This document shows, piece by piece, positions 24,259-44,687 of a stretch of DNA of 64,000 nucleotides (positions are counted from its first letter, which is position 1; each line of letters begins with the position of its first letter). Below the pieces are notes generated by a model, which searched no databases, was not told the DNA's origin, and was given only the letters and a program-made list of their open reading frames with translations. A program made the translations under genes and the position numbers. The DNA lies in contig JAQBTR010000002.1 in NCBI GenBank assembly GCA_027624915.1, positions 30,802 to 94,801 on the forward strand. The letters are read 5' to 3'. Source of the DNA: a bacterium. Lineage in GTDB: Bacteria; Patescibacteriota; Minisyncoccia; Ryanbacterales; GWA2-47-10b.

Positions 24259-25671
24259 ATGATACGTGATGGACTTACATTCAATGATGTACTCTTGGTT
24301 CCAAAAAAGTCTGAGGTTTTTTCAAGAAAGGATATTGATACCAAGGCGTACTTAACACGACTCGTATCTATACATGTACCAATTGTCAGTGCAAACATGG
24401 ATTCTGTTACAGAATTTCAAATGGCACGAGCAATGGCAGAAAACGGTGGAATTGGAATAATCCATCGTTTTTTGTCTATTGAAGATCAGGTAGAGGAGGT
24501 TGCAAAAGTAAAGCGCGCAGAAAATACTGTCATCGAGGATCCGTACACCGTTCACCCTGATTACACTCTTTTTGATGCAAGGCGTTTTATGGAGAGCAAG
24601 TCCATATCTGGTGCCATTGTTGTAGATGACAAAAAGAAACTTGTTGGTATTATTACATCGCGAGATTTGCTTTTTGAACAAGACGACAGGAAACTTGTTA
24701 AGAATGTAATGACTCAAAAGGTGATTACAGGTGAGCCACGAATCTCACTCGATAAGGCAATTGATCTTTTGCATACTCATAGAATTGAAAAACTGCCACT
24801 CGTAACTAAAGCCGGAACATTACGAGGGCTTATTACACTTAAGGATGTTTTAAAGCGGATAAAGTATCCTCATTCTTCTAAGGATAAAAAGGGGAGACTC
24901 ATGGTGGGAGCTGCTGTTGGTGTTAAGGATGATACTTTAAAACGTACTGATGCTCTGTTACGTGCAGGGGTAGATATTATTGTTGTAGATATAGCACATG
25001 GACACAATACGCGAGCGATTACTACAACCAAGCAGATAAAAAGAAAGTTTGGTAAAAAATGTCAACTTATCGCAGGAAATGTTGCAACGCCACGTGCTGC
25101 TGAAGACTTAATAAAAGCAGGCGCTGATGGAATTAAGGTTGGCATTGGGCCAGGGGCGGCGTGTACCACGCGTATAGTAACCGGTGTTGGAGTCCCACAA
25201 CTGACAGCAATACAAGACGTTATTTCAGTGACGAAGAAGTTAAAGATTCCAATCATAGCTGATGGTGGTATTGGTAATTCGGGAGATTTTGCCAAGGCAA
25301 TAGCAGCTGGTGCACAAACAGCAATGATAGGTAGTTTGCTCGCAGGATGTGAAGAATCTCCAGGTGAATACGTTATGGAAAATGGTTCCGCATACAAACA
25401 CTACCGAGGCATGGCGAGCTATGAGGCGAGCTCTGAAAAGGTTCGTATTGATGGCGGTGGCAAAGATGGTTTTTGGCGAGCACCAGAGGGTAGGTCCGGC
25501 AAAGTTCCATACCGTGGTAAAACCTCAGGTGTTTTAAATGATCTCATGGCAGGATTGCGTAGCAGCATGAGCTATCTTGGTGCACATAATTTAAGTGAGT
25601 TTTCAAAAAACGCAGAGTTCATAAAAATGTCTCCATCTGGCATGAAAGAGTCAGATACGCGTCTTGACTAG
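24259..25671 (+). CDS. guaB: IMP dehydrogenase with CBS pair
   Basis: IMPDH catalytic loop GIGPGAACTTR, CBS domains, 470 aa. Confidence 0.85.
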   Translation: MIRDGLTFNDVLLVPKKSEVFSRKDIDTKAYLTRLVSIHVPIVSANMDSVTEFQMARAMAENGGIGIIHRFLSIEDQVEEVAKVKRAENTVIEDPYTVHPDYTLFDARRFMESKSISGAIVVDDKKKLVGIITSRDLLFEQDDRKLVKNVMTQKVITGEPRISLDKAIDLLHTHRIEKLPLVTKAGTLRGLITLKDVLKRIKYPHSSKDKKGRLMVGAAVGVKDDTLKRTDALLRAGVDIIVVDIAHGHNTRAITTTKQIKRKFGKKCQLIAGNVATPRAAEDLIKAGADGIKVGIGPGAACTTRIVTGVGVPQLTAIQDVISVTKKLKIPIIADGGIGNSGDFAKAIAAGAQTAMIGSLLAGCEESPGEYVMENGSAYKHYRGMASYEASSEKVRIDGGGKDGFWRAPEGRSGKVPYRGKTSGVLNDLMAGLRSSMSYLGAHNLSEFSKNAEFIKMSPSGMKESDTRLD

Positions 25672-29169: not shown

Positions 29170-31806
29170 ATGATGAGCTTAGAGTTATTAAACAAACAGA
29201 GGAGGGCCAGAATGGCTCGCTCAAATAGGAAGACACCAAAACGAAACCCACGCATACCGTGGTCTAGTTTTTCCAAGAAATTTGTAGATCGACTTTGCCG
29301 AATGGCAACCCAGGATGAAATCCTGGATGCTGTCGCGAAAGAATGTGGCACACGTCCCACATGGAACACGACAAGCGCATATTTTTCTCGTTCTGGATTA
29401 AAGCCTAAAGTTTTTGAAGTACTTCATGTTGCTGATCGTCTTGACGGCAAGCAACAAGAGAATTTTAGAAAACTTTGGACAAGTGATGCTTCCATTTCTG
29501 ATGTGGAAGAAGTATTTCCTGGCATAAAGAGAGATGATCTCCGTCGTATTGCTCAAAGGCTTAAAGTAAAGAGGGGTTCTCGTAAGGAGCAGGACACAGC
29601 GTTCGATGAAGTTATTTCACCTTTGTCGCCAGAAGAGGCACTCGCTGAGATGACGTTGCCAGAGCGTGAATGGGACGACCCACTTCAACTAGAGATGATG
29701 CCAGGCGCATGGGCTGATCGTGCCGTTCGAATCGGACTTATGTCCGGTATCGCATATGGCAATGATGGCATGCGTGGTGGTCTCATTAATCTTGCGATGG
29801 AACTTCTTCGTGATGAGGGTATCCGCCTCATCATCAATAATGCACACGTTGTCGATGGTAAGAGTGTTGTCGGTCAAGTGGCCGAACGCACCGTTGAACT
29901 TCGAGAGGAGTCTCGCGGGCGCCGTGCCACAAGGGCTGGTAGAGAAAGATATCCCGCACTTACTCAGGCTTCGCTACGCGATAAGGCTGCAGAAGATGTT
30001 GTGCAGGCAGTAGCCAGAGACCTTTCTTCACTCATACCCCAAATTCTCCGTCCTTTACCGATGCGCGAGAAAGGACGAATTCCATTTGTAAAGATGTATA
30101 CGCTCACGACTCCAGATACCCTATCTCTCTATGATGGAAAGTATGGAGAATCTATTGCGGAAGAATTGCAACATATTCGTGACGACATCATCTTGTATGG
30201 TGCTGGTGGGGACTGGATCTATATCAGAGATTTTGATATCAAGATTGGTATTTTGAATCCCAGCAGATCTCGACTTCCTGGTAAGTACCAGAGTACAGCC
30301 GGTGAAAAAGAGATTGATGAGAAAGAACGCCAGACATCTCAAGACTTCCCAGATCTTTGGATTGTGAATCCGTTTGCAGCAGCTGTATTTCAGCCGGCAG
30401 GCATTCGCGCACGTCCATACATCATGGGACCAGCACTTCGTCGTTTGGAAGAAGTCCACACGGCCGAGAATCAGGCTGGTATCATGATTCTGGAGTATAG
30501 ACCAAATAGACAGAAGATTGTTCGTAACTATTCGTTTAGAGATTTGATTAGAGCTGAGCTTAAGACGATTGTTACTCCGCGTGGCGCAACCAAGACGCAA
30601 AAACGTATTGTTGCGACAATCGGTGAGCACGGCGCTCTTCCTATTGGTACTCTCGAAGACCGTATGCCAGGAGTGAGTCGTGCAACGATTGAACGAGAGA
30701 TTTCTGGTCTTGTAAGCTCTACAGGCAAGCTTTCTACTCGTAAGACATGGCCTGGATTGGTTTTCGATTCGAGGTCAAAGAGATACTACTTCGATGACGA
30801 GTGGATCCAGCGAAAGTTAAGATATCGTTGGCCTAAGGACTTGGTTAGTGACCGTATGCTCTTCTTCGGATGTTTGCATGCTGGGTACACAACGACAGAC
30901 TACGAGCACTTCGTAAAGGAGTACCCTCGTATCATGCTCGAGTATGGTGTTGATCATCTCTTCGGACTTGGCGACATGATCGCTGGTCTAAAGCATGGTC
31001 TTGCATGTTCCGGCGAAGTATTCGGTGGGATGAATTATACCGAGCAAGAGGTTTTTGCCGCAGAACTCGTTGCAACGGTTTTGTTCAAAACCTTCAGGGC
31101 TCGTTTGGAGGTCAAGAGAGGCAAGAAGTCCTTGTCTGACCTTTCTTCCGAAGAGCTGTCGAACCTACTTTCTGATAGCCTCGTTCACTTCCACTATATT
31201 CATGGTAATCATGATTTGTGGCAGGAATATGACGGGCAAATTCCTCTTCAGCAGTTCAACGATGTGTTGGTGAGACTCTTGCATGATGAGACTCTCAAGA
31301 TGTTGATAGAGGAGCGAGCTCCTGCTATCGATCTTTTTGAGATTTTGGCTTCAAAAACTTCTTTCTATTCTGATTTTGCTGGAGTTGCCGAATTGCCGTC
31401 TGGCATCAGGGTGTCAATGCAACATCCTCAGATGGGTCGCGCTCAAACGACAACCTTGCGTGCCCAGCATGCAATGGGAACTCGCGGCGCACAAATCTCA
31501 GCTCTTGCTAACTTCCATGCGTCTGCCACTGTCGCCCAGTGGACTTCTGATCTCGGTCAGTGTGTAGCCATGCAGGCGGGGACGCAGGTCATCTATACGC
31601 GCTTCGAGCGTCGTAAGATGAAAAAAGAAGTTGATTTCGGCCCGCTCTATCTCCATGTCCAGTCCAAGGGTGGACGAATTTATATAGATGAACGAGCGGC
31701 GTTTAATGAAAGTATTTTAAAAGTAGCTCTTAATAAGAAACACGATTCTGAAGGCCTTAAGCGAAAGCTTGGTCTACTCCGACATCCGGATCTTATTGTT
31801 AGGTGA
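29170..31806 (+). CDS. large hypothetical protein (878 aa) with C-terminal calcineurin-like metallophosphoesterase motifs, on a higher-GC island
   Basis: GCLHAG / GDMIAG / IHGNHDLW resemble phosphoesterase motifs I-III (the motif I Asp is replaced by Cys); basic N-terminus; GC about 48-55% against 40% background. Confidence 0.55.
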   Translation: MMSLELLNKQRRARMARSNRKTPKRNPRIPWSSFSKKFVDRLCRMATQDEILDAVAKECGTRPTWNTTSAYFSRSGLKPKVFEVLHVADRLDGKQQENFRKLWTSDASISDVEEVFPGIKRDDLRRIAQRLKVKRGSRKEQDTAFDEVISPLSPEEALAEMTLPEREWDDPLQLEMMPGAWADRAVRIGLMSGIAYGNDGMRGGLINLAMELLRDEGIRLIINNAHVVDGKSVVGQVAERTVELREESRGRRATRAGRERYPALTQASLRDKAAEDVVQAVARDLSSLIPQILRPLPMREKGRIPFVKMYTLTTPDTLSLYDGKYGESIAEELQHIRDDIILYGAGGDWIYIRDFDIKIGILNPSRSRLPGKYQSTAGEKEIDEKERQTSQDFPDLWIVNPFAAAVFQPAGIRARPYIMGPALRRLEEVHTAENQAGIMILEYRPNRQKIVRNYSFRDLIRAELKTIVTPRGATKTQKRIVATIGEHGALPIGTLEDRMPGVSRATIEREISGLVSSTGKLSTRKTWPGLVFDSRSKRYYFDDEWIQRKLRYRWPKDLVSDRMLFFGCLHAGYTTTDYEHFVKEYPRIMLEYGVDHLFGLGDMIAGLKHGLACSGEVFGGMNYTEQEVFAAELVATVLFKTFRARLEVKRGKKSLSDLSSEELSNLLSDSLVHFHYIHGNHDLWQEYDGQIPLQQFNDVLVRLLHDETLKMLIEERAPAIDLFEILASKTSFYSDFAGVAELPSGIRVSMQHPQMGRAQTTTLRAQHAMGTRGAQISALANFHASATVAQWTSDLGQCVAMQAGTQVIYTRFERRKMKKEVDFGPLYLHVQSKGGRIYIDERAAFNESILKVALNKKHDSEGLKRKLGLLRHPDLIVR

Positions 31807-31866: not shown

Positions 31867-32427
31867 TCACTGGTGTTCCCGTTTTATCTGGGCACGCATG
31901 CGTGCCATGATTCTTTGACTTGTTTTTTGGCCCTCTGCGTCTGTTTTTTGTGGGTAACGGATAGCTATATAGTTGACCAACAAAGAATCAAGCAGCTCAT
32001 CATCTGATGAATGTTTAAGGGGATTCAAGATGATGGTGTGTCTAAGAAGGTCGTACGTGGCCTCGCCTTTATAATCTCTCATGCAAATCACTCTAAAGTT
32101 GTTTCGAATAAGAAATTTCAATTGTGGGACCGCATTCTCTAGTGAGAGTGTATCCCACCAAAACTCACCATCCTGTGCCATAATGCGCTGAACTCCTTTT
32201 TTGATTGGCTTATGGTTACATCGCCATCCAGGATGTATGACATGAAGATACTCATGAATGAATGTATCCCACATTTCTTCAGAATTGCTGTGTTTCCTCG
32301 GGTCAATGATTACTGTTTTAGTATCTTCATCACAGAGACCCCATGCATGACCACCATTTTTTTCAGGGTACAGTTTGTCGTATTCTACAGACCATCCTTT
32401 GTTCATCAGCGCTTGAAGGCGCTTCAT
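31867..32427 (-). CDS. SprT-like (HExxH) zinc metalloprotease domain protein
   Basis: GLCDEDTKTVIID...FIHEYLHVIH matches the SprT-like/WLM pattern; start set at ATG 32427 with a GGGAGG RBS, the track ORF is longer. Confidence 0.55.
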   Translation of the reverse strand: MKRLQALMNKGWSVEYDKLYPEKNGGHAWGLCDEDTKTVIIDPRKHSNSEEMWDTFIHEYLHVIHPGWRCNHKPIKKGVQRIMAQDGEFWWDTLSLENAVPQLKFLIRNNFRVICMRDYKGEATYDLLRHTIILNPLKHSSDDELLDSLLVNYIAIRYPQKTDAEGQKTSQRIMARMRAQIKREHQ

Positions 32428-32544
32428 AACAGGCCTCCCTTGGCTTTTACAGTCTATACATATGCAAACATATTTTCTTTGCTTATCCAAGGGGTAGAAA
32501 TGCATAACTATTTGTGTTATAGTTGGCGCTACAATAAAAAATAG

Positions 32545-32660
32545 GGAGGAGTGGCTGAGTGGGTCACAGGTCTGGGAGAGCTGTGACGGGAAATATAGCG
32601 AGCTTGTCGAGCGTATAGTATTTCCTCGGGTCGCGTGATGGGCGCGACGACTAGCGCACA
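32545..32660 (+). ncRNA. candidate structured RNA element 5' of tRNA-Ser (copy 2 of the family); begins with an 18-nt duplicate of the tRNA-Ser 5' end
   Basis: ggaggagtggctgagtgg is identical to the tRNA-Ser start; then hairpin gtcacag...ctgtgac, core acgggaaatatag...tatttcc, hairpin gggtcgcg-tgatggg-cgcgac. Confidence 0.4.
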
Positions 32661-32701
32661 AAGTACGTAATGCTTTTCCGGAACAATTTAGATATACATA
32701 T

Positions 32702-32788
32702 GGAGGAGTGGCTGAGTGGTTGAAGGCGGCAGTCTTGAAAACTGTTAAGGGTGAAAGCCCTTCGTGAGTTCGAATCTCACCTCCTCCG
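32702..32788 (+). tRNA. tRNA-Ser (anticodon TGA), type II, CCA not encoded
   Basis: acceptor ggaggag/ctcctcc, anticodon loop cttgaaa, variable-arm hairpin aagggtgaaagcccttc. Confidence 0.85.
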
Positions 32789-32795
32789 CATCAAA

Positions 32796-32830
32796 ACAAA
32801 TGGGATACCTTGCGTATCCTTTTTTTGTTT
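32796..32830 (+). terminator. rho-independent terminator after tRNA-Ser
   Basis: tgggatac-cttgc-gtatcc + ttttttt. Confidence 0.55.
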
Positions 32831-33553: not shown

Positions 33554-33639
33554 TACAGTCGCCATGCATGGCGGCTTTTTTGTTTTTTATATACCCAGTA
33601 TGTCTTTCAAAAAAGTAGTGCTGGGTTTACAATGCTTTT

Positions 33640-34368
33640 ATGTTTTTGATTAGAAATATAAAAGTGAAAGGAACGATAAAGAAGGGACGAGGTGTTTTTG
33701 CAACATCAGACATCAAAGCCGGAACCGTAATAGGTGATTACTTAGGAACAATACTTCCAGAAAAAGAAGACGATTTATCTCGTGGTCTTTATAGTATGGC
33801 CTGGGGAGGAGATGATGATACGATTATTTTGGCTAACCCAGATAAAAATGGTATTCATTTGATTAATCACTCTTGCGTACCTAATACATGGATGCATCCA
33901 TATAATGGACGAACGGTTTATTTTGCGTTGCGAAAAATTTTTAAGGATGAAGAGTTAACTATCAACTATCTCATAGGTGAGCCCGACGAAGATTGTAAGC
34001 CTTGTGATGACGTGTGCCACTGTGGTGATATCTTTTGTCACGGAACCCAGCATTCCTCTGAATACTTAGTAGATGCGCATGAGAAATACGAGCGTCGTAT
34101 AATTAAAAAGCAACATATACCAAGACGTCCAAAGAGTGGAACACAATTAAAAAAACTATCACGTTATCCCAAGTCTATAAGCGATGATCCTGTTTTCGTT
34201 CTTTTTTCTAATAGAAAAAAATCTCCTGTAAAAATAGAAAACGATGAGTTTCCGCCAATCAAAACTTTGCGATGTCTCATTCGAGAAACGGGGAGGTCTT
34301 TAGAGTTTTCTAAGATTGGTCTTACTGTTGTTGGCATACGAGAGGGTCATGCTATTGTAAAGACATAG
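33640..34368 (+). CDS. SET-domain protein (putative protein lysine methyltransferase) with post-SET Cys cluster
   Basis: NHSCVPN and ELTINY SET motifs; CKPCDDVCHCGDIFCHG post-SET cysteines. Confidence 0.75.
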   Translation: MFLIRNIKVKGTIKKGRGVFATSDIKAGTVIGDYLGTILPEKEDDLSRGLYSMAWGGDDDTIILANPDKNGIHLINHSCVPNTWMHPYNGRTVYFALRKIFKDEELTINYLIGEPDEDCKPCDDVCHCGDIFCHGTQHSSEYLVDAHEKYERRIIKKQHIPRRPKSGTQLKKLSRYPKSISDDPVFVLFSNRKKSPVKIENDEFPPIKTLRCLIRETGRSLEFSKIGLTVVGIREGHAIVKT

Positions 34369-34373
34369 ACCAT

Positions 34374-36047
34374 ATGAAATATTTTCTTTCCGTTACTATT
34401 TTCCTAGTACTCCCCGTGTTTCTTTTTGCTCATGGAGGTGAGGAGCACGACCCTATCATAATGACTGTAACAGATGAAGGTTTTGCTCCTAGTCAGATTA
34501 CTGTCGTTGCAGGAGAAACGGTAACTTTTGAAAACGATGGAAAGGAGGATCACTGGCCTGCATCTGATGTTCACCCAACACATGAAGCATACTCCGCTCT
34601 TGATCCAAGACGACCAATCATTCCAAGAGCATCATGGAGCTTCACATTTGAAGAGGAGGGACAATATACAATACATGACCACTTATTCCCGGATTTTGGT
34701 GGTCTCATTACTGTAAAACCTGAGGGTACAGTTATTGTTCGAGATGGTTTACCAGAACAAAAAAATATAGAAGCTCCACCAGAAGAGAAAGAGCCAGGAT
34801 TTTTTGCACGTAAATGGGTCTCCATAAAAAGATTTTTAGGGTGGGTTTTTGGTAGAAACGATAATAATCAGGAGATAGATAAAACAGAAGAGACTCAAGA
34901 AAAGATATCAGATGAGGAGGTGGTTTTGATACAAGAGGTTCGTCAAGAGATTGATACTCATTTTACAGAGCCTACTACATACAATAAAGATTTTCTGTAC
35001 AAAAGTTTTGATTTAGGCTGTACAAGTTCTAATCACGGATGTATTAGTAATTCTGTAAAAGATTTAACACGAGACTATGGTCCTGTTGCTGCTGTTGAGT
35101 TACTCGAAATTATGGTTGCCGATGGTCGTGTTTCAAGATCAATTAATGACCATCAATTATCTCATGAGATTGGTAGAGAGGCCGCGCGTTCGTATGGAGT
35201 CAACAGCGAAGCATTTTTGTTATGCCCCATGTCAGCGTTTAATGGTGGGTGTCAGCACGGTTTCTTTGAATATGTTTTAGGTAGAACAGAGTCGACATCA
35301 CAGGCAGCAGATTTAATATGCAAATCACTCGGAGATACATACTCAAATAAATTTAAATTTTACTGTTACCATGGAGTTGGTCATGGGGTTATGATGCAAC
35401 AAGCATATGACTTACAGGCATCATTAGATACTTGTGATTCATTAGACGGGCTGTCCGCACAGGATGGTTGTTGGCAAGGAGTGTTTATGGAAAATACTAA
35501 TGCTGGTATGTCTGGTGAGGCACGCGCTGGACTATTTTCTCTAGAGGACCCTCTAGCACCATGTAATCAGGTTGAGGACAAGTATCGTAATGAATGCTAT
35601 CTAAATCACGCTGGTTATTTAATGAAGTTTTTTGGCAATGATATACGTCGTGGTGCGCATTCATGTCTGGAGGCTGGAGAATGGATTCCTTCATGTCTCC
35701 AAAGTCTTGGCCTCATGGTTACAAATCCTTCATGGCAAGGTGCACTACTCCCAGGAGCCGCTCAATTAGGTGAGGTACGTTCAGCATGGGAGCTTTGCCG
35801 TATGTTTCCAACTGATCACATAAGTCAGTGTGTACAGGGTGGTGTCGACAATATAATTAACTTTGATGAGTTTGATGTCGGTCGAGCTGATGAATTTTGT
35901 AGTATAATTGATACACAGGATCAAGAGTTGTGTTTTAGAGGGATAGGTCGTAATCTTAGAAACGATTCTATAAATCAACAACAAGTAACTGATGCGTGTA
36001 ATTTGTTATCAACACAAGAGAGTAGAGACTGGTGTCTTTTAAGATAA
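34374..36047 (+). CDS. secreted protein: N-terminal cupredoxin-like domain (Cys ligand replaced) + Cys-rich repeat region (paralog A)
   Basis: signal peptide; GFAPSQITVVAGETVTFENDG...HWPASDVHPTH...YTIHDHLFPDFGGLITV cupredoxin-like; then about 24 Cys in repeating C-x-HG / C-Y-H-G-V-G-H-G units. Confidence 0.6.
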   Translation: MKYFLSVTIFLVLPVFLFAHGGEEHDPIIMTVTDEGFAPSQITVVAGETVTFENDGKEDHWPASDVHPTHEAYSALDPRRPIIPRASWSFTFEEEGQYTIHDHLFPDFGGLITVKPEGTVIVRDGLPEQKNIEAPPEEKEPGFFARKWVSIKRFLGWVFGRNDNNQEIDKTEETQEKISDEEVVLIQEVRQEIDTHFTEPTTYNKDFLYKSFDLGCTSSNHGCISNSVKDLTRDYGPVAAVELLEIMVADGRVSRSINDHQLSHEIGREAARSYGVNSEAFLLCPMSAFNGGCQHGFFEYVLGRTESTSQAADLICKSLGDTYSNKFKFYCYHGVGHGVMMQQAYDLQASLDTCDSLDGLSAQDGCWQGVFMENTNAGMSGEARAGLFSLEDPLAPCNQVEDKYRNECYLNHAGYLMKFFGNDIRRGAHSCLEAGEWIPSCLQSLGLMVTNPSWQGALLPGAAQLGEVRSAWELCRMFPTDHISQCVQGGVDNIINFDEFDVGRADEFCSIIDTQDQELCFRGIGRNLRNDSINQQQVTDACNLLSTQESRDWCLLR

Positions 36048-36052
36048 ATACC

Positions 36053-37648
36053 ATGAAAAAAAATCTACTAACAATTTTACTTTTAATGTTTTTGACAACA
36101 GCTGGTGTTGTTTTTGCTCATGAATCAGATATAACGGATACCGTTGTTATTCATATGAGCAATGATGGTTTTAATCCAAAAGAGGTGATTATACAACGCG
36201 GAGAGAAGGTTGTTTTTGAAAATGTGGGAGAAGATGAACACTGGCCAGCTTCTAATATTCACCCAACGCATCGTGCCTATCCAAAATCTGACATTAGCGA
36301 TTGTGGTACAACAAATGAGCGATTTATGTTTGATGCATGTAAACCAATAAAACCAAATCAGACATACACATTTCAATTTGATGAACTTGGTGAATGGAGA
36401 TTTCATGACCATCTTAATGCGACCTTCAGCGGTCAAATACATGTAGTAGAAAATGGTGGAGCGCAAGAAGAAAAAGTGGAAGAAAAGAAGCCAGGAATTT
36501 TAAGACGTTTTTGGAACTGGTTAAAAGGTATTTTTAGTCGTAATGAAGTTGTTGATGATATACGAGAAGACATCATAGATAGGGAAGATGAAGATTCGGC
36601 ACTTTTAGATATAGAATATGAAGAAAAGAAATGGGTGTATAATCCCAACGTTGAAGTAGACTCAACTCTGATAGCAACAGATAAGGACGAACTGTTTTCA
36701 TATGTAAAAAAATACAGCCCCTCAAGGGCTCTTGAGCAGTTGTTTTCAATTGAAAGTCAGTTCGGCAACTGTCATGATAATGCTCACTATGTAGGAAGAT
36801 TTTCTTATGAGCTTTATGATTCTGAAGCATTCAGGCAGTGTGCAATGTTATGTCAGTCTGGTTGTTATCACGGTGCGGTAGAAGCATATTTTCGTGAGCA
36901 TGGGACATCAAATCTTGCGGACAACATAAATAAACTTTGTTCTGGTAATACAAATCCATTTATTGTTCATCAATGTCGTCATGGCGTGGGGCATGGATTA
37001 TTGGCATGGTCAGACTATGCATTATTTGATGCACTAGAGGATTGCAATCTTTTGCAGCAGGGAGAGGCACAGACCTCGTGCTATAGTGGTGTGTTTATGG
37101 AAAATATTGTACAAAGTATGGCATCCTTCTTAGAAATTGAAGGACACACAACACAATACTTAAGTGATGATCCTCACTACCCATGTAATATTGTTGATGC
37201 TCAATACAAGCCCACATGTTATTTCTTACAGACCGATCGCATGGTTGAGTTGTCCGGTGGAAATTTTGCTACAGTTGCTCAAAATTGTTCTGAGGTTGAG
37301 GATGTCTTTTCTCGTCGAATGTGTTTTGAAAGTATGGGACGAACTGTTGGGGGAAGAAATAGAAATAATCCACCAGGGGCTATTAGTACTTGTTACAATG
37401 CTAACCCCGGAACAGATAGACTCGGTTGTTTGATGGGGGCGGTACAGGATACATTCTGGGATCCATCAGGGCAAGACAATGCAATTAGTTTTTGCAAATT
37501 ACTTACACCAGAAGATGAGAAGGACACTTGCTATGGAATGATTTTTGGACGAGCGCCACAGGTTCTTACCAAAGAGGCTGACCACAGAGCTTTTTGTCAA
37601 AAAGCAGAAACTACCTACCAGGGTCGTTGTCTGGCATATATTAGATAA
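36053..37648 (+). CDS. secreted cupredoxin-like + Cys-rich repeat protein (paralog B)
   Basis: signal peptide MKKNLLTILLLMFLTTAGVVFA; same architecture as 34374-36047 (GFNPKEVIIQRGEKVVFENVGEDEHWPASNIHPTH; QCRHGVGHG). Confidence 0.6.
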   Translation: MKKNLLTILLLMFLTTAGVVFAHESDITDTVVIHMSNDGFNPKEVIIQRGEKVVFENVGEDEHWPASNIHPTHRAYPKSDISDCGTTNERFMFDACKPIKPNQTYTFQFDELGEWRFHDHLNATFSGQIHVVENGGAQEEKVEEKKPGILRRFWNWLKGIFSRNEVVDDIREDIIDREDEDSALLDIEYEEKKWVYNPNVEVDSTLIATDKDELFSYVKKYSPSRALEQLFSIESQFGNCHDNAHYVGRFSYELYDSEAFRQCAMLCQSGCYHGAVEAYFREHGTSNLADNINKLCSGNTNPFIVHQCRHGVGHGLLAWSDYALFDALEDCNLLQQGEAQTSCYSGVFMENIVQSMASFLEIEGHTTQYLSDDPHYPCNIVDAQYKPTCYFLQTDRMVELSGGNFATVAQNCSEVEDVFSRRMCFESMGRTVGGRNRNNPPGAISTCYNANPGTDRLGCLMGAVQDTFWDPSGQDNAISFCKLLTPEDEKDTCYGMIFGRAPQVLTKEADHRAFCQKAETTYQGRCLAYIR

Positions 37649-37649
37649 C

Positions 37650-38561
37650 ATGGAAATAACTCCTTATACGATAAACATGCGTCAGCTCATTGAAGACGCT
37701 ATACAAAACTTTGGTTACGCACCAGAACATAATGTGTACTGGTTTGAAAATGGTGCAGAGGACGAACAAAAGCCATACTTCGTTACATTTGATGATGGCG
37801 ACGGCATGTTCGCATATAAAGAAGATAATATTTGGTATACGCTATCAGATCCAATTGCCCCCAAAAAAGATTGTGCGAAAAGAATAAATGAGTTTGCAAG
37901 AAAAGTATTTGCTGATGCATCGATCGATAAAATTGTTGTTGAATATAATACTGAGATACGTAAGGAGCTTAGTACACTTTTGGCGCCAGAATATAAAGTA
38001 AAAGCAATTAATTACACATTAGTATGGCCAGTTACTGATATGTCGAAGTTCGACCCCGAACTACCCGGTAAAAAATGGAAGAGCATACGAAATGCAAGAA
38101 ACAGGTTTTATCGTGAACATGATGTTATCGTAAAAGATATAAAAGACGTTTCAAAAGATAATTTACATTCTGTAATTAATCGTTGGGAAGATGGCCGTGG
38201 ACAAGCAGACGGAAGTAGGGGGGACATCACATATTCTGATTCATTTCATTCGATGGTGGATTCTGGATTTCCGGGATGCGATGGCGCTCGAGCAATGTTT
38301 GTAGATGGGGCTGTTGTTGGATTTAATGCTGGATGGGTTATACCCAATTCAGAAACATATTATGGCGCTATAGGGCTCCATGATTATTCAGTTCAAGATT
38401 TGGGACAAATGCTGTATCTAGAAGATCTTGTGTGGATAAAAAAATGTGGATATCCAAAAACTGATATGGCCGGAGGTGAAAAGGAGCTTACAAGTTTTAA
38501 AAATCATTTTCATCCAGATTATTGGTACAAGACGCATGCATTTTCAATAGCACGCGCGTGA
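37650..38561 (+). CDS. FemAB/BioF2-like GNAT-fold protein (putative aminoacyl/acyl transferase), paralog 1
   Basis: C-terminal region resembles the FemAB-like acetyltransferase domain (...GFNAGWVIPNSETYYGAIGLHDY...AGGEKELTSFKNHF); 1-nt overlap with its paralog. Confidence 0.45.
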   Translation: MEITPYTINMRQLIEDAIQNFGYAPEHNVYWFENGAEDEQKPYFVTFDDGDGMFAYKEDNIWYTLSDPIAPKKDCAKRINEFARKVFADASIDKIVVEYNTEIRKELSTLLAPEYKVKAINYTLVWPVTDMSKFDPELPGKKWKSIRNARNRFYREHDVIVKDIKDVSKDNLHSVINRWEDGRGQADGSRGDITYSDSFHSMVDSGFPGCDGARAMFVDGAVVGFNAGWVIPNSETYYGAIGLHDYSVQDLGQMLYLEDLVWIKKCGYPKTDMAGGEKELTSFKNHFHPDYWYKTHAFSIARA

Positions 38562-39463
38562 TGATCACTCTTCAGCCCTATACAAAAGACACAAGATCTA
38601 TTGTACTCGATACAATACAAAAGTATGGATTTTCTCCTGAACATAATATTTTTGATTTTGAGAATGTAATAGATGATTATTCCGAAGCCTTTATTGGAGT
38701 CATTGATGATGAGTATATTGTTTTAACACAAGAAGACGATGAAAAAACATGGTGGGTATTTGCAGATCCCCTAGCCCCCCCAAAAAAACGTGGAATGGCT
38801 ATCGCACAATTCTTGGAGTATGTATTTTCTAAAGAAGATGCCAAGAGAGTAACGTGCGAACTCTTTTCTGCTACAAAAGATGAGTTATTAGACCACTTGC
38901 CTAAATACTTGGATATTGAGCCGCAAGAGAACACTCTTATAGGGCCAATCTTTGAACTCGAGCAATTTGATGAAAGTCTTGGTGGTCACCAATTAAAAAA
39001 AATTCGGAGTGTTGTCCGACAGTTTAATGAAAATGTTAAGATTGAGGCGCGTCCAGCACAGAATTCACCGCATGAGGATGCTATGGGTGTCATACACCGG
39101 TGGATCCATAACCGCACCTTTAAGGATGAGGTGTTTATCGAATACTATCAGAGATTTGTTGAGAGTAACTTTGAAGGAGCCGAAGAAACACGGGTGCTCT
39201 ATGTTAATAATAAACCCGTCGCACTGAATGGTGGTTGGCGTGTGCCAAATTCGGAGACATTTTATAATGCACTTTCACTCCATGATTATTCCTTAAGGGG
39301 TCTTGGTGAGATAATAATGGTTGAAGCACTCTCGTACTTAAAAAATAAAGGATATACGTATGCAGATTTTGGTGTTGGAGAAAAAAATCTAACCTCATTT
39401 AAACAAAAATTTTGTAAAAATAAACTTCAGACGGCATATGAGTTTTCAGTAGTAAAAAAATAA
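38561..39463 (+). CDS. FemAB/BioF2-like GNAT-fold protein, paralog 2
   Basis: collinear similarity to the upstream gene (PYT..., SPEHN..., NGGWRVPNSETFYNALSLHDYS..., FGVGEKNLTSFKQKF). Confidence 0.45.
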   Translation: MITLQPYTKDTRSIVLDTIQKYGFSPEHNIFDFENVIDDYSEAFIGVIDDEYIVLTQEDDEKTWWVFADPLAPPKKRGMAIAQFLEYVFSKEDAKRVTCELFSATKDELLDHLPKYLDIEPQENTLIGPIFELEQFDESLGGHQLKKIRSVVRQFNENVKIEARPAQNSPHEDAMGVIHRWIHNRTFKDEVFIEYYQRFVESNFEGAEETRVLYVNNKPVALNGGWRVPNSETFYNALSLHDYSLRGLGEIIMVEALSYLKNKGYTYADFGVGEKNLTSFKQKFCKNKLQTAYEFSVVKK

Positions 39464-39484
39464 TAAAAACAATATAATAAAAAA

Positions 39485-40792
39485 GTGGAGTCAAAAAACA
39501 GTAATGGTAGGAAAAAAATAAAAAAATTTCTTTTTGTTTCATCTTGGGGCATGATTGGTGACCTTGCTTGGCACATTCAAAGGGAGGGAGCTGAAGTTAG
39601 GTTTTATTTGGATTGTGAAGATGATGTTCTTGATGGTTTTTTGGATAAAGTTGAAGACTGGAAAGATCATAAGGATTGGGCCGACATTATCATTTTTGAT
39701 GAGGTTGGCTATGGATACGGTAAGATTGCCGATGCCTTACGAAAAGAAGGTAAGTTTGTCATTGGTGGAAGTGCATACACAGACAAACTAGAAGAAGACA
39801 GAGAATTTGGCCAAGCTGAAATGGAGTCGGTTGGGATGACGATTTTACCCCACTGGAACTTTAGTGATTTTGATGAGGCAATAAAATTTATACAAGAGAA
39901 TCCGGGACGTTATGTCTTTAAGCCATCTGGAGATATTTCTGGTAATGAAAAAGGGATTCTGTTCATTGGAGAGGAGGAAGATGGTAACGACATTATTGAA
40001 GTCCTCGAACATAACAAAAAAAGTTGGTCCAAGAAAATAAAAAACTTTGTGCTTCAAAAGTTTGCATCGGGCGTAGAAATTGCAGTTGGAGCCTTCTTTA
40101 ATGGAAATGATTTTGTGTATCCTGTAAATGTAAATTTTGAGCATAAGAAGTTGTTCCCTGGTGATATTGGTCCATATACCGGAGAGATGGGAACGCTTAT
40201 GTTTTGGTCAGAACCTAATAATCTTTTTAAGATGACGCTCGAAAAGATGCGCGAGAAATTAAAAGAATCGGGCTATGTTGGATATATAGATATAAACTGT
40301 ATAGCAAACTCGCGCGGTATTTACCCACTTGAATTCACGGCGCGTTTTGGCTATCCGACAATCAATATACAGATGGAGGGCGTCACTAGTTTGTGGTCAG
40401 AGTTTTTTTATTCACTATCACGTGGGGAGGGGTTTGACCTTAAAACAAAGCATGGATTCCAAGTTGGCGTAGTTGTTGCGGTTCCTCCATTCCCATACCA
40501 CGCTAAAGCAGAAGTAGAGATGTATAAGGACTTTTCTATTTTATTTAAACGACCTAATCTTGAGGGGATACACTTGGGGGAGGTAAAACTTGTTGATGGT
40601 GATTGGCATTTGGCAGGGACTACCGGGTACACGCTTATCGTGACAGGAGCTAACAGTACTGTTGAGGAGGCTCGTGAGCAGGCATACAAACGAGTACGCA
40701 ATATCATGCTGCAAAATATGTTCTATCGGACAGATATAGGGGAGAAGTGGTACCACGAGAGTGACCATTTGCAAACCTGGGGTATTCTTTGA
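39485..40792 (+). CDS. purD: ATP-grasp enzyme of the phosphoribosylamine-glycine ligase (PurD) family, divergent
   Basis: HKKLFPGDIGPYTGEMG (cf. PurD HKRVGDGDTGPNTGGMG), LEFTARFGYP, C-terminal YRTDIGEKW; no other pur genes in the window. Confidence 0.6.
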   Translation: MESKNSNGRKKIKKFLFVSSWGMIGDLAWHIQREGAEVRFYLDCEDDVLDGFLDKVEDWKDHKDWADIIIFDEVGYGYGKIADALRKEGKFVIGGSAYTDKLEEDREFGQAEMESVGMTILPHWNFSDFDEAIKFIQENPGRYVFKPSGDISGNEKGILFIGEEEDGNDIIEVLEHNKKSWSKKIKNFVLQKFASGVEIAVGAFFNGNDFVYPVNVNFEHKKLFPGDIGPYTGEMGTLMFWSEPNNLFKMTLEKMREKLKESGYVGYIDINCIANSRGIYPLEFTARFGYPTINIQMEGVTSLWSEFFYSLSRGEGFDLKTKHGFQVGVVVAVPPFPYHAKAEVEMYKDFSILFKRPNLEGIHLGEVKLVDGDWHLAGTTGYTLIVTGANSTVEEAREQAYKRVRNIMLQNMFYRTDIGEKWYHESDHLQTWGIL

Positions 40793-40793
40793 G

Positions 40794-41822
40794 ATGATGC
40801 CTACTATGCCACGCATAAACACAAAATATATATCTTCTCCAAGGCAGCAAATATTACTAGGAATCGTCTTAGTTCTGTTTTTTGTATTCGGTTTTGGTTT
40901 CGGTATTATTTTTCCACCACACCCAACAAGCACCATGCCGCTTATAATAAAACGCGGGACAAGCGCTGAATCTATTTCAAATCAATTGAAGGTAGAAAAT
41001 ATAATACGCTCTAGATTTTTGTTCGTGTGGGCTACTTATCTGGGCGGAATCCATGATGAGTTAGCAGCGGGCCGTTTTCTATTTGATGAATCTATATCTA
41101 CCTTTGGTGTTTTGAGGAGACTCACGCAACCTCAGGAAGAGCTCTCTGTTTTTATCCCAGAAGGTTCAACCATACGAGAGATAGAAATAATTCTAAGACA
41201 AAATAATATACCATCGGCAGAGTTTTTAGATTCACGCAGATATCCAAATGTATACAAAGAATTTCACCCGTTCCTAGAAGTTATTCCGGAAGGTCAAGAT
41301 CTTGAAGGATTTTTGTTTCCCGATACGTATAGATTCTATGAGTACTCTTCTCCCGAAGAAATAGTAGATACAATGCTTGATAATTTTGAGCTCAAGCTCA
41401 AACCATTTGTTAGTGATATCGATGCAAGTCCACACTCGTTGTATGAGATAATCACAATGGCATCAATCTTAGAAAAAGAAGTACCCTCGGCCGATGAAAA
41501 GGCTATTGTGTCAGGAATTATGTGGAAGAGAATAAGAGAGGGGATGCCACTTCAAGTAGATGCGACACTTTTTTATGAGTTAGGAAAAACAAGTAGGGAG
41601 CTTACCCAAAGTGATTTGAAAAATGAGACTCCATACAATACATATACCTATCAAGGTCTTCCACCAGGTCCAATTTCAAACCCAGGAGCAGAATCTATAG
41701 AGGCCACACTTAATCCAAAAGAGACCCCTTTCTATTTCTATCTTTCCGATAGGGATGGCAATACATATTTTTCACGAAACTTTGAAGAACACAAAGAGAA
41801 GAAATTTAAATACTTGCGCTAG
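40794..41822 (+). CDS. mltG: endolytic murein transglycosylase MltG (YceG family)
   Basis: N-terminal TM helix and the YceG signature TPYNTYTYQGLPPGPISNPG. Confidence 0.8.
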   Translation: MMPTMPRINTKYISSPRQQILLGIVLVLFFVFGFGFGIIFPPHPTSTMPLIIKRGTSAESISNQLKVENIIRSRFLFVWATYLGGIHDELAAGRFLFDESISTFGVLRRLTQPQEELSVFIPEGSTIREIEIILRQNNIPSAEFLDSRRYPNVYKEFHPFLEVIPEGQDLEGFLFPDTYRFYEYSSPEEIVDTMLDNFELKLKPFVSDIDASPHSLYEIITMASILEKEVPSADEKAIVSGIMWKRIREGMPLQVDATLFYELGKTSRELTQSDLKNETPYNTYTYQGLPPGPISNPGAESIEATLNPKETPFYFYLSDRDGNTYFSRNFEEHKEKKFKYLR

Positions 41823-41855: not shown

Positions 41856-42881
41856 ATGTCACAAAAGAAAGTTTTTGTTGCTATGTCAGGTGGAGTGGAT
41901 AGCTCAGTATCAGCAGCCCTCCTAAAACAAGCCGGATATGACGTATACGGTGTATTTATGCAGGGTTGGGCCAACCCTAATTTTGATTGTGAGTGGAAAG
42001 AAGAAAGGCGAGATGCAGCTCGTGTTGCGGGCGTTCTTGATATACCATTTAAGGTTTTAGATTTTTCCAGAGATTATTATGAACATGTTGTTTCGTATTT
42101 GATCAGCGAGTACAAAGCTGGACGTACACCCAATCCAGATATTATGTGCAACAAAGAAATTAAGTTTGGCCTTTTTTATAGGTGGGTCATGGCTGAGGGT
42201 GCAGATTTTGTAGCCACAGGCCACTATATACAAAAAGAAGGTGACCATGTATTTGCAGGGGCCGACAGAGGAAAAGACCAGACGTATTTTTTGTGGACAC
42301 TTACAAAAGATATTATTGAACATTCGCTTTTTCCAATAGGGAGTTATCAAAAGTCTGAGGTAAGAATTCTTGCAGAAAAATTTAAATTGCCAGTTGCTGA
42401 CAAAAAAGATTCGCAAGGGGTTTGCTTCGTTGGAGAGGGTAGTATGGTTAATTTTTTGAAGGAGAATATTAAAGCAACAGCTGGAGATATAAAAACCATT
42501 GACGGCAATGTAATTGGTCATCATGAGGGAGTTGAGCTTTTTACCATAGGACAACGTCACGGCATTGGCACTCCTGGTGGCGGAGGTGTGTATTATGTCG
42601 CCGATAAAGATTTAAAAACTGGTGTTTTGACTGTTGCTCGCGGAGATGAAGATCCAATACTACAAAAAAGTAAAATCATGTACACAAATCCTAATTGGAT
42701 TCATGGGGTTTCTTTGCCGCTCGCATGCATGGCACGAATAAGATATAGACAAACTCTTTCATCCTGCACTGTATACGAAAATACTGTTGTGTTTGATGAG
42801 CCACAGAAAGCTGTCGCTCCAGGACAATCCATTGTTTTTTACAAAGATGACGAGATGCTTGGGGGCGCGATCATCAATTAA
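41856..42881 (+). CDS. mnmA: tRNA-specific 2-thiouridylase MnmA
   Basis: PP-loop SGGVDSS at N-terminus and overall MnmA similarity. Confidence 0.85.
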   Translation: MSQKKVFVAMSGGVDSSVSAALLKQAGYDVYGVFMQGWANPNFDCEWKEERRDAARVAGVLDIPFKVLDFSRDYYEHVVSYLISEYKAGRTPNPDIMCNKEIKFGLFYRWVMAEGADFVATGHYIQKEGDHVFAGADRGKDQTYFLWTLTKDIIEHSLFPIGSYQKSEVRILAEKFKLPVADKKDSQGVCFVGEGSMVNFLKENIKATAGDIKTIDGNVIGHHEGVELFTIGQRHGIGTPGGGGVYYVADKDLKTGVLTVARGDEDPILQKSKIMYTNPNWIHGVSLPLACMARIRYRQTLSSCTVYENTVVFDEPQKAVAPGQSIVFYKDDEMLGGAIIN

Positions 42882-42923
42882 AAAGCAGTTCTCAGTAATC
42901 ATCTTGTGTGATAAACTGCTCGC

Positions 42924-44687
42924 ATGACAGCACGCGAGATACGTACAAAATTTCTAGAATATTTTGAGAAAAACGGACACACCGTTGTGCCCTCAAGCTC
43001 TCTTTTGCCAGACGATCCGTCTGTTTTGTTGACGACAGCTGGCATGCAGCAATTTAAGTCGTATTATACACGTAGCGCCGACCCAATGCGTGATTTTAAA
43101 TCACTATCTACAGCATCTGCACAAAAATCCTTTCGTACATCTGATATTGACGAAGTTGGAGATGATACACATCTTACATTCTTTGAAATGTTGGGTAACT
43201 TTTCGTTTGGCGGATACTTCAAAAAAGAAGCGATTACTTTTGCACATGAGTTTATTACAAAAGAGCTCGGACTAGATATTTCGTACGTTACTATATTTGA
43301 GGGGTCTCGTACTGTGCCAAAAGATGAAGAATCACGAGAAATTTGGAAATCACTCGGTGTTTCAGATATACGCGAAGAAGGCATGGATGACGTTTTTTGG
43401 GGCCCTACGGGTAGTTCTGGACCCTGTGGACCCACAACAGAACTGTACTGTAAGAATGCAACGGGTGAAGACGTAGAGATTTGGAACATTGTATTTAATG
43501 AATTCTTTTATCCTGGTAGCCGCGAGGAATTACTTGGAGGCTCAACCTCCAAGTCTCTTGAGCCTCTGGAGTATCCGGGGGTTGATACAGGTATGGGACT
43601 CGAGCGACTAGCGATGGTTAGTCAACAGACAAAAAATATTTTTGAAATAGACTCGTTCCAGACACTTTTTAACTTACTCCCAGACGAGCTTGATGTGCGA
43701 ACAAAGCGCATAATTTCTGATCATTTGCGAGGAGGTGTATTTCTCTTGGCTGATGGTGTGCGACCATCGAATAAAGAGGCGGGCTACATATTACGTAGGT
43801 TGTTGCGTCGCGCGCTGGCATACGAAGAAATTAATAATTTAGAAGCGAGTCTTTTTGAGTCGATGCTATTGCAGGTTATTAATACAGAAGGTGAGTTTTA
43901 TACTGAATTAAAAAGTAATAAAAATGAAATAATAAATGAATACTGGTCCGAACGAGAGAGGTTTACCAAAACTCTGAAGCGCGGGCTCGGCGAGCTTAAT
44001 AAGCTCGAAAGTATTGATGCTGTCGGTGCTTTTCGTCTATACGAATCATTTGGGCTTCCTTTCGAAATCATCAAAGAAATTGGTGGAGAGGGCGCGCACG
44101 GACTATCACGAGAGCTTTTTGATAAAGAATTTGAAAAACACCAGAAGAAGTCTCGTGCAGGTGCCGAAAAGAAGTTTGGTGGTCATGGCCTCATTCTTAA
44201 TACTGGAGAGCTAAAAGCAAAAGACACCGAAGAATTAAAAAAAGTAACACGCTTGCATTCGGCTACACATCTTATGCAAGCTGCTTTGAGAAAAGTTCTT
44301 GGTGATAGCGTAGAACAACGAGGCTCTGATATAACTGTAGAGCGTACGAGATTTGATTTGAGTTTTGATAGAAAAATTACAAAAGAAGAGTTGCGGAGGG
44401 TTGAAGATATTGTAAATGATGTAGTTGAAAGAGATCTAACGGTCACAGAAGAAGAATTGTCCTTCGAAGAGGCTATACGTAGAGGTGCTTTGCATTTTTT
44501 CAAGGAAAAGTACCCAGAGCACGTAAGGGTATATTCTTTTATGGACAAGGATGGAAAACCATTTTCCATGGAGCTGTGTGGTGGACCTCACGTTACCCAC
44601 ACCCAAGAAATCGGGAAATTCCGTATAATAAAAGAAGAGGCGTCATCGGCCGGTGTACGTCGCGTGAGAGGTACGGTAGAACCATAA
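42924..44687 (+). CDS. alaS: alanyl-tRNA synthetase, short form (catalytic + tRNA-recognition + compact editing core; no C-Ala domain)
   Basis: class II AlaRS N-terminal motifs; editing-site HSATH and CGGPH motifs; only 587 aa. Confidence 0.75.
   Translation: MTAREIRTKFLEYFEKNGHTVVPSSSLLPDDPSVLLTTAGMQQFKSYYTRSADPMRDFKSLSTASAQKSFRTSDIDEVGDDTHLTFFEMLGNFSFGGYFKKEAITFAHEFITKELGLDISYVTIFEGSRTVPKDEESREIWKSLGVSDIREEGMDDVFWGPTGSSGPCGPTTELYCKNATGEDVEIWNIVFNEFFYPGSREELLGGSTSKSLEPLEYPGVDTGMGLERLAMVSQQTKNIFEIDSFQTLFNLLPDELDVRTKRIISDHLRGGVFLLADGVRPSNKEAGYILRRLLRRALAYEEINNLEASLFESMLLQVINTEGEFYTELKSNKNEIINEYWSERERFTKTLKRGLGELNKLESIDAVGAFRLYESFGLPFEIIKEIGGEGAHGLSRELFDKEFEKHQKKSRAGAEKKFGGHGLILNTGELKAKDTEELKKVTRLHSATHLMQAALRKVLGDSVEQRGSDITVERTRFDLSFDRKITKEELRRVEDIVNDVVERDLTVTEEELSFEEAIRRGALHFFKEKYPEHVRVYSFMDKDGKPFSMELCGGPHVTHTQEIGKFRIIKEEASSAGVRRVRGTVEP

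Follow-up and report, generated by a model that had tools for sequence, protein, structure and literature searches.

A SET-domain methyltransferase gene linked to a PurD-derived ATP-grasp ligase gene in a composite cluster of a Patescibacteria genome

We analyzed a 64,000-nucleotide stretch of contig JAQBTR010000002.1 from a Ryanbacterales genome (the window), in which seven consecutive open reading frames (ORFs) fill positions 33640-41822 of the plus strand. The window has a G+C content of about 41%, and homology searches placed the best matches of its proteins in metagenome-assembled genomes (MAGs) of Patescibacteria, with Ryanbacteria the closest. Pfam and NCBIfam assignments identified, in order, a long SET-domain methyltransferase of 242 amino acids (33640-34368), two secreted paralogs with a signal peptide, a Cupredoxin_1-like domain and a Cys/His repeat domain (557 amino acids, 34374-36047, and 531 amino acids from its ATG, 36053-37648), two DUF2156-like proteins (37650-38561 and 38561-39463), an 'extra PurD-like' ATP-grasp ligase of 435 amino acids (39485-40792), and the endolytic transglycosylase MltG/YceG (40794-41822). 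The conserved core of this cluster consists of the SET gene, the PurD-like ligase gene and, at some loci, DUF2156-like genes, and the seven-gene run is a composite of three unrelated units.

An initial annotation, made from the sequence alone, had described seven consecutive same-strand genes with two tandem paralog pairs, and both points stand: the secreted proteins are 29% identical to each other and the DUF2156-like proteins 31%. The partial overlaps that it reported are mostly an artefact of taking the longest ORF, as for the second secreted paralog, whose longest ORF begins at a GTG at 36032. With the likely ATG starts (36053, 37650, 38561 and 40794), gene spacing ranges from a 21-nucleotide gap to a remaining overlap of 1 nucleotide, where the start of the second DUF2156-like gene overlaps the upstream stop codon. 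A terminator-like hairpin with a T-run (33557-33576, plus strand) and a promoter-like site (33606-33633, plus strand), both of them consensus matches only, would mark the 5' boundary of the transcription unit at 33557-33633.

The ligase contains the GARS_A (54.8 bits) and GARS_C domains, and GARS_N (PF02844) gave no match in it at E<=0.1, in agreement with its first description as a divergent PurD-like ATP-grasp protein. Its score against the TIGR00877 purD equivalog model is 113 bits, compared with a cutoff of 288. Alignment with E. coli PurD and diverse family members showed that the ATP-grasp core is kept (K146, E198, K221, E283, R287 and the YRxDIG motif), the five residues being conserved family-wide. 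Other PurD motifs are replaced. In place of the GGREHA loop, the clade consensus has SxESLSGDLAW and the window protein SSWGMIGDLAW, while the RFGDPE motif (Prosite PS00184, R-[LF]-G-D-P-E) reads RFGYPT, its Asp being changed family-wide to Tyr or Phe and its Glu to Thr and other residues. DHKR and EFN are found as EHKK and EFT, the Asn of ExN being Thr. These variant motifs were common to all 22 diverse family members that were read. According to a modelling study (PMC8880213), PurD binds glycine through D212, R287 and E292; two of these three positions, D212 and E292, are changed in the ligase and R287 is kept. A family-specific WGYL tail, absent in PurD, closes the C-terminus. By sequence, the best PDB match is PurD 2yw2 (E=8e-24, approximately 25% identity), and a Foldseek search with the AlphaFold model (predicted local distance difference test, pLDDT, of 74) also returned PurD first (TM 0.67), followed by PurK, the L-amino-acid ligase RizA and biotin carboxylase. 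We conclude that the ligase is a member of the ATP-grasp superfamily descended from the purine enzyme PurD. The evidence says that it is not itself PurD, and that the label phosphoribosylamine--glycine ligase, under which these proteins of ultra-small and mostly uncultivated organisms are entered in public records, is wrong.

Gene order was compared with the PurD-like protein as the anchor (6475 homology matches, the top ones 65-79% identical). The sample comprised 85 non-redundant loci besides the window, mostly from species representatives and with flanks of up to 10 kb per side; the fully flanked subset, in which neither flank is shorter than 1.5 kb, numbers 64 loci. Neighbors were analyzed by local ORF calling, jackhmmer, BLAST clustering and Pfam scans of the remaining neighbors, and partners were sought by Pfam among 118 immediate neighbors and, for the 810 ORFs lying within 4 kb, by clustering all against all. 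Enrichment was seen for the SET and DUF2156-like families alone, and no conserved substrate gene or other partner gene was found beside the ligase in this sample. The next most frequent neighbors, namely secA, a DUF1749 hydrolase, ftsX, a ribosome hibernation factor and a MiaB-like gene, look like lineage synteny and were not retained as partners. A DUF1749-type alpha/beta hydrolase follows the ligase at six loci, DPANN-labelled ones such as L032:4976-7098 among them, and a MiaB/RimO-like radical-SAM gene lies near it at five. Many ligase-bearing records carry the labels Gammaproteobacteria, Methanosarcinales, Acidobacteria, Verrucomicrobia or Nitrososphaera (L016, L023, L031, L038, L053, L054, L056, L062, L067, L068 and others). 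Their ligases nest among Patescibacteria and DPANN sequences, and these records may be MAGs with a wrong label or wrong binning, or they may reflect genuine transfer.

No pur family occurred in the listed results for neighbors of the ligase, either in the window or at the 85 related loci, as the initial annotation had observed for the window. This bears on the proposal that the protein is a divergent but genuine glycinamide ribonucleotide (GAR) synthetase, left over or working in a cryptic purine pathway. Public annotation and the position of PurD as best sequence and fold match speak for it, as does an IMP dehydrogenase gene in the window. The low equivalog score, the family-wide loss of the GGREHA loop and of the Asp and Glu of RFGDPE, and the lack of pur neighbors speak against it. 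Moreover, haloarchaea have a canonical PurD in addition to their 'extra PurD-like' proteins Hlac_1553 and rrnAC0307, which were rejected as GAR synthetases when archaeal purine genes were curated in 2011 (Brown et al., PMC3261824). We therefore regard this explanation as extremely unlikely. The IMP dehydrogenase, which has CBS domains (24259-25671, plus strand), is the sole purine-related gene product among the scanned window proteins, and its role is nucleotide interconversion, not de novo synthesis.

The window SET protein matches PF00856 with 65.6 bits (cutoff 22.4), with the SET domain at residues 16-110 followed by a C-terminal domain of about 100 amino acids, and its best PDB matches are the SET domains of KMT2A and NSD proteins. 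The NHSC and ELTINY motifs and a post-SET cluster of Cys residues (C122, C126, C128 and C133) are invariant among the long SET proteins. This long type occurs at nine other loci, each of which has a DUF2156-like or class I methyltransferase gene adjoining SET or the ligase. Taking all SET types together, SET genes lie no more than 2.5 kb from the ligase at 22 of the 85 loci, of which five belong to the 33 with an archaeal label and 17 to the remaining 52, and at 20 of the 64 fully flanked ones. Altogether, 29 SET genes were found within 2.5 kb of the ligase compared with four farther out in the same loci, which corresponds to a 14-fold higher density (Poisson P ~2e-23). The two genes share a strand with a gap of 60 nucleotides or less in nine cases, and gaps are as small as -32 to +3 nucleotides. 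At least three recurring SET subfamilies were distinguished, and seven loci have two or more SET matches (two fragments of a single gene at one of them). On a neighbor-joining tree of the Patescibacteria/DPANN ligase clade, SET-linked loci are scattered.

The linkage extends to a gene fusion. In a high-G+C bacterium (L093:2781-4915, a contig of ENA ERZ26273096), protein P0301 joins a PurD-like ligase to a C-terminal short SET domain, and upstream of its gene are a separate SET gene and genes for a CMAS-like methyltransferase and an RlmN-like radical-SAM protein. The second SET gene together with the fusion mirrors the SET-ligase-SET arrangement of a Patescibacteria locus (L001).

The adjacency of mltG and of the cupredoxin/Cys-rich genes to the ligase is confined to one clade. 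The identity of MltG, recognized from the start, is secure (PF02618, 255.7 bits; TIGR00247, 229 bits with a cutoff of 103), and its gene adjoins the ligase at six of the other 85 loci, which all belong to a single Ryanbacteria-like clade. There mnmA and alaS come next, as they do in the window (41856-42881 and 42924-44687, with an FtsA-like gene following). Genes for cupredoxin/Cys-rich proteins adjoin the ligase at three of the 85, all within the same Ryanbacteria-like clade as the window. The Ryanbacteria-like relatives, unlike the window, have the Cys-rich gene or genes, a stand-alone cupredoxin gene and a thioredoxin-like gene upstream of SET, and between SET and the ligase they have either two DUF2156 genes or one class I methyltransferase gene. 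We conclude that the cluster is composite because the adjacency of MltG and of the cupredoxin/Cys-rich genes is clade-confined and the SET-ligase core is widespread. In this genome the two secreted-protein genes lie inside the conserved core, and mltG-mnmA-alaS is housekeeping lineage synteny outside the cassette. In four loci (L005, L010, L012 and L013) the gene that separates long SET from the ligase encodes a 199-amino-acid class I S-adenosylmethionine (SAM) methyltransferase; the window, L007 and L011 have two DUF2156-like genes in this position, which looks like a swap of tailoring enzymes.

The initial annotation had raised the possibility that all seven genes form one peptidoglycan or cell-envelope module. 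In such a scheme the DUF2156-like proteins would act like FemX and the ATP-grasp enzyme as a D-Asp or D-Ala ligase on the stem peptide, together with MltG. Fem-type transferases and ATP-grasp ligases do use peptidoglycan precursors, MltG follows the ligase here and in six relatives, and at a few loci the ligase has a MurB gene in its vicinity. The MltG adjacency, however, belongs to a single clade and continues into mnmA and alaS, the DUF2156-like proteins have no FemAB Pfam match, and it is not apparent what a SET enzyme would do in peptidoglycan synthesis. Archaea lack murein, and the ligase family has an archaeal member and its pairing with SET occurs in DPANN-labelled loci, which argues against a peptidoglycan substrate. 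We consider this proposal quite improbable, and the single-module interpretation is not supported: gene order splits the run, the SET-ligase pairing recurring across lineages and the linkage of MltG and of the cupredoxin/Cys-rich genes being clade-limited. The observations behind that annotation were largely real, with some details wrong.

Both DUF2156-like paralogs match LPG_synthase_C (PF09924; 44.9 and 42.5 bits, cutoff 27.5), and Acetyltransf_6 matches their second half. The first (37650-38561) belongs to a widespread subtype of stand-alone, MprF-synthase-like aminoacyl-tRNA-transferase homologues, and the second (38561-39463) to a clade-restricted one, for which a word-indexed homology search gave four matches and jackhmmer on the collected loci 14. 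A profile of 14 family members matched the aminoacyl-phosphatidylglycerol synthase domain of LpiA/MprF in the PDB (E=9e-6), and a conserved LxGxxxKxxR segment aligns with the basic alpha(+) aminoacyl-tRNA-binding helix of DUF2156 enzymes (PMC7334510). The pair had been called FemAB-like GNAT proteins. The GNAT assignment holds at the level of profiles through Acetyltransf_6, but no FemAB family in Pfam or NCBIfam matched the window paralogs at E<=0.1; the profile that they match is that of the MprF/LpiA synthase, and the relationship to FemXAB is at the superfamily level only. Ten of the other 85 loci have DUF2156-like genes beside the ligase, and no locus with an archaeal label is among these ten.

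The DUF2156 enzymes described in the literature consulted (including PMC7334510) all act on lipid hydroxyl groups, and tailoring of lipid head groups is an alternative that the window paralogs bring to mind. They would aminoacylate a scavenged membrane lipid, as MprF, LysX and ErdS do, and the ligase and SET enzyme would extend or methylate either this newly added amine or that of an ethanolamine or serine head group, which is common to bacterial and archaeal lipids. The profile match to LpiA/MprF, the conserved basic residues of the alpha(+) helix and the CMAS-like methyltransferase in the fusion locus fit this scheme. It is weakened by the rarity of the DUF2156-like genes, by the fact that SET enzymes are not known to act on lipids, and by Pfam scans of the four cassette enzymes, which revealed no flippase or membrane domain (transmembrane helices were not predicted directly). 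On balance we find it unlikely, although it is the most credible of the alternatives.

The ligase family is large and crosses domains. An exhaustive HMMER search (E<=1e-30) collected 476 clusters at 50% identity, graded from 63% to 33% identity, and between Patescibacteria and DPANN archaea the ligase retains 57-79% identity. One archaeal contig of 1.7 Mb carries a 49%-identical member on its own, next to TFIIB. Archaeal and bacterial ligases are interleaved in the neighbor-joining tree of the Patescibacteria/DPANN clade, which, together with the scattered SET-linked loci, is compatible with repeated transfer between domains and with an association that is old or has arisen more than once. Inteins with Hint and LAGLIDADG domains interrupt three members (P0246, P0248 and P0281) after G236/T237 and within E283-F-T-x-R, with P0248 carrying two. 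The high cross-domain identity and these insertions in catalytic motifs suggest an important function. In the literature covered, which did not include the 2009 Iyer amidoligase survey, the 2011 haloarchaeal note was the only item found on the function of the ligase or its link to SET.

Several family members have additional domains or viral contexts. Protein P0310 (1236 amino acids) is a fusion of a phage portal protein, a PurD-like ATP-grasp domain (residues 593-1018) and a MuF minor head protein, which implies a virion-associated version of the enzyme. The complete 43.8-kb phage MW202796.1 has an unannotated ORF that is 31% identical to the ligase (record positions 42149-43438; L096:9001-10290). 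This ORF closes the virion module, in which head-closure, GNAT and tail-related genes come before it, and a gene annotated 'ubiquitin' is near. In distant members of the family, a domain of about 110 residues with DxDxT/DYDGV motifs, HAD-like by eye, is C-terminal (P0299 and P0383) or N-terminal (P0384 and P0370; see also locus L095). In P0299 it matches phage families labelled polynucleotide kinase and phosphoheptose isomerase, and a small ORF after P0299 has a weak match to a double-stranded-RNA-binding motif.

These contexts raise the idea of a virus-derived conflict or effector enzyme, e.g. a modifier of host proteins or nucleic acids, that spread horizontally and has no housekeeping role. 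The portal and MuF fusion, the copy closing a phage virion module, the HAD or Pnk-phosphatase-like fusions and the intermixing of archaeal and bacterial sequences in the tree would all be expected from it. Much less expected are the 57-79% identity within the Patescibacteria/DPANN clade, the inteins in catalytic motifs and the location of the gene among ordinary cellular genes (secA, mltG, ftsX, the dnaK operon) in the loci read. PADLOC and PHROGs gave no match for the submitted cluster proteins of the window. A viral effector thus seems very unlikely.

The secreted paralogs form the second unit. Their Cupredoxin_1 scores of 26.3 and 24.2 bits fall just under the cutoff of 27. The AlphaFold model of paralog 1 (pLDDT 88.5) has a signal peptide (residues 2-19), a cupredoxin sandwich (28-115), a disordered linker and an all-alpha repeat domain (205-557). 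The initial annotation had recognized a cupredoxin-like domain without the Cys ligand, which proved accurate: paralog 1 has no Cys before residue 216, and in place of the type-1 copper Cys its loop reads H101-D-H103, both His being invariant in the 37 sequences that have the cupredoxin domain. H67 and H70 are likewise invariant, and H60 is present in most sequences. His follows directly after the predicted signal-peptide cleavage site (His20 in paralog 1) in 32 of the 39 sequences aligned there, and this N-terminal His is a possible metal site of the cupredoxin domain. The description of the second domain needed more revision. Instead of about 24 Cys per protein in periodic C-x-HG(V/A)GHG units, the paralogs have 18 and 20 Cys, and that motif occurs once in each (C331, C315). 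The repeating element is eight Cys pairs (C-x8-14-C), spaced every 35 residues or so, which are probably disulfides. Five His residues of the helical domain are invariant (H260, H264, H295, H333 and H337). The Cys-rich family has at least 479 members by homology search, in Patescibacteria and some Nanoarchaeota-labelled records, including stand-alone helical-domain variants of about 400 amino acids and longer ones of about 860. These proteins are an orphan extracytoplasmic Cys/His-rich family that probably binds metal, and our best guess at their role is extracytoplasmic metal binding or redox chemistry.

The adjacency of these genes to the cassette had also suggested that the cytoplasmic enzymes mature or modify the secreted proteins, as in a system for an exported metalloprotein. 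The genes do adjoin in the window and, rearranged and with a thioredoxin-like gene, in three close relatives. Beyond these three of the 85 other loci the arrangement is not repeated, three distant homologues of the Cys-rich protein sit in unrelated neighborhoods, and the relatives keep the genes upstream of SET, outside the cassette. Such a role is hardly to be expected.

Starting from the domains, motifs, linkage and fusion described above, we propose that the locus combines a cytoplasmic amine-tailoring cassette with a secreted pair and a housekeeping unit, and we assign this reading a probability of about one half. The chemistry suggested for the cassette is that of the superfamilies to which its enzymes belong. 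The first unit would comprise the SET methyltransferase, the two DUF2156-type aminoacyl-tRNA transferase homologues and the PurD-derived ATP-grasp ligase, all acting in the cytoplasm. The ligase would activate a carboxylate as an acyl-phosphate and join it to an amine other than phosphoribosylamine, SET would N-methylate a lysine-type primary amine with SAM, and the DUF2156 paralogs, where present, would add aminoacyl groups from charged tRNA. Together these enzymes would build or decorate an amine-bearing molecule common to bacteria and archaea. The second unit would be the secreted pair, in which a Cys-less cupredoxin with a likely N-terminal-His site is coupled to a predicted disulfide-stapled, His-rich alpha-solenoid, and the third would be the mltG-mnmA-alaS housekeeping unit.

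To our knowledge, SET enzymes are known solely as protein-lysine methyltransferases, and phage enzymes fused to MuF are typically modifiers of proteins or nucleic acids. Because of these two precedents and that of the eukaryotic protein TTLL12 (discussed below), we tentatively favor a lysine residue of a cytoplasmic protein as the substrate. Since PurD and the characterized DUF2156 enzymes use small molecules and lipids, a metabolite or the head group of a lipid is also plausible. The substrate is most likely neither peptidoglycan nor a purine intermediate. RuBisCO or nucleotide salvage, EF-P/aIF5A, FtsZ, polyamines and RNA ends were also considered as substrates; their support is by analogy only, and none is put forward. 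The same preference can be carried one step further, to a hitherto unrecognized and strongly conserved pathway, spread between Patescibacteria and DPANN archaea by gene exchange, in which the ligase adds an amino-acid-like acyl group to a lysine-type amine of a core protein or another shared molecule and dedicated SET enzymes methylate this amine. This extended version is conceivable but doubtful.

Several points weigh against the amine-tailoring reading. Nearby SET genes are missing from roughly two thirds of the PurD-like loci, and therefore the ligase may act alone and the pairing may be accessory. The proposed chemistry derives from superfamilies alone, because no conserved substrate or partner gene accompanies the ligase. 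The precedents also diverge in substrate class, that of SET being protein and those of PurD and DUF2156 being small molecules or lipids. The ligase model is of moderate quality only, with low confidence in the loops that would line the substrate pocket. In other branches of the family, the HAD-type phosphatase and portal-MuF fusions hint at phosphorylated or nucleic-acid-related substrates. Finally, all seven genes of the window may be co-transcribed.

The genes upstream of the cluster were also inspected. A tRNA-Ser(UGA) gene (32702-32789), followed by a terminator-like hairpin (32802-32820), lies about 850 nucleotides upstream of the SET gene, and between this hairpin and SET are two short ORFs without family matches. 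Two further ORFs just upstream, at 29170-31806 (plus strand, 878 amino acids) and 31867-32661 (minus strand, 264 amino acids), have no Pfam or PADLOC match; visual inspection shows metallophosphoesterase-like GD/GNHD motifs in the former and an HExxH-like motif in the latter. Before them, the 902-amino-acid product of 26322-29030 (plus strand) fuses a DAO FAD oxidoreductase with Rieske 2Fe-2S, ferric-reductase-like transmembrane and DM13 electron-transfer domains. Such a DAO-Rieske-DM13 fusion is unusual in a lineage thought to be without respiratory chains.

The locus is of value mainly for its pairing of SET with a PurD-like ligase that is not a purine enzyme and, in second place, for the orphan Cys/His domain of the secreted proteins. 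If the extended, cross-domain version of the amine-tailoring reading is correct, the 'purD' entries in metabolic reconstructions of Patescibacteria and DPANN archaea would be unrelated to purines.

The relationships of the individual proteins to known systems can be set out as follows. The ligase shares with PurD the GARS_A-GARS_C domain order and the residues for ATP, Mg and acyl-phosphate; it differs from PurD in having no GARS_N match, in having lost GGREHA and R[LF]GDPE, and in the changed D212 and E292 positions. The haloarchaeal Hlac_1553 and rrnAC0307 resemble it in the missing GARS_N, the non-conserved Asp of RFGDPE and the divergent N-terminal loop, a likeness drawn from their published description. 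That publication (PMC3261824) flags the mis-annotation only and reports nothing on a SET link, a spread over Patescibacteria and DPANN, inteins or fusions. The DUF2156-like paralogs have the family profile and basic helix in common with MprF/LpiA and the fungal ErdS. In contrast to these, they are stand-alone proteins of about 300 amino acids without a flippase domain or an aminoacyl-tRNA synthetase fusion, come as a pair of paralogs and have SET and ATP-grasp genes linked to them.

For the secreted paralogs, EfeO-type and Cupredoxin_1 proteins are among the closest known systems. The paralogs share the beta-sandwich fold of type-1 blue copper cupredoxins but lack the Cys ligand. The His predicted at their mature N-terminus is a putative metal ligand that would recall the histidine-brace copper proteins (lytic polysaccharide monooxygenase, LPMO, and CopC), but the fold is not that of an LPMO. 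The helical domain invites comparison with the Hcp/Sel1-type cysteine-rich helical repeat proteins of Helicobacter.

The nearest parallel to the cassette as a whole is TTLL12 of eukaryotes, which, according to its report (PMC3520985), combines a SET-type domain with an ATP-grasp domain of the amino-acid-ligase type and showed neither histone-methylation nor tubulin-ligase activity. The ATP-grasp domain of TTLL12 belongs to the TTL family, whereas the ligase described here belongs to the PurD family; the likeness is one of architecture only, with no shared ancestry of the pairing indicated. The P0301 fusion and the SET-ligase operons repeat the TTLL12 combination of domain types. They offer a testable handle on the function of the ligase and a possible prokaryotic analogue of protein modification by SET and ATP-grasp enzymes, and the cassette, if the extended version of our reading is correct, would be a prokaryotic counterpart of the TTLL12 pairing.

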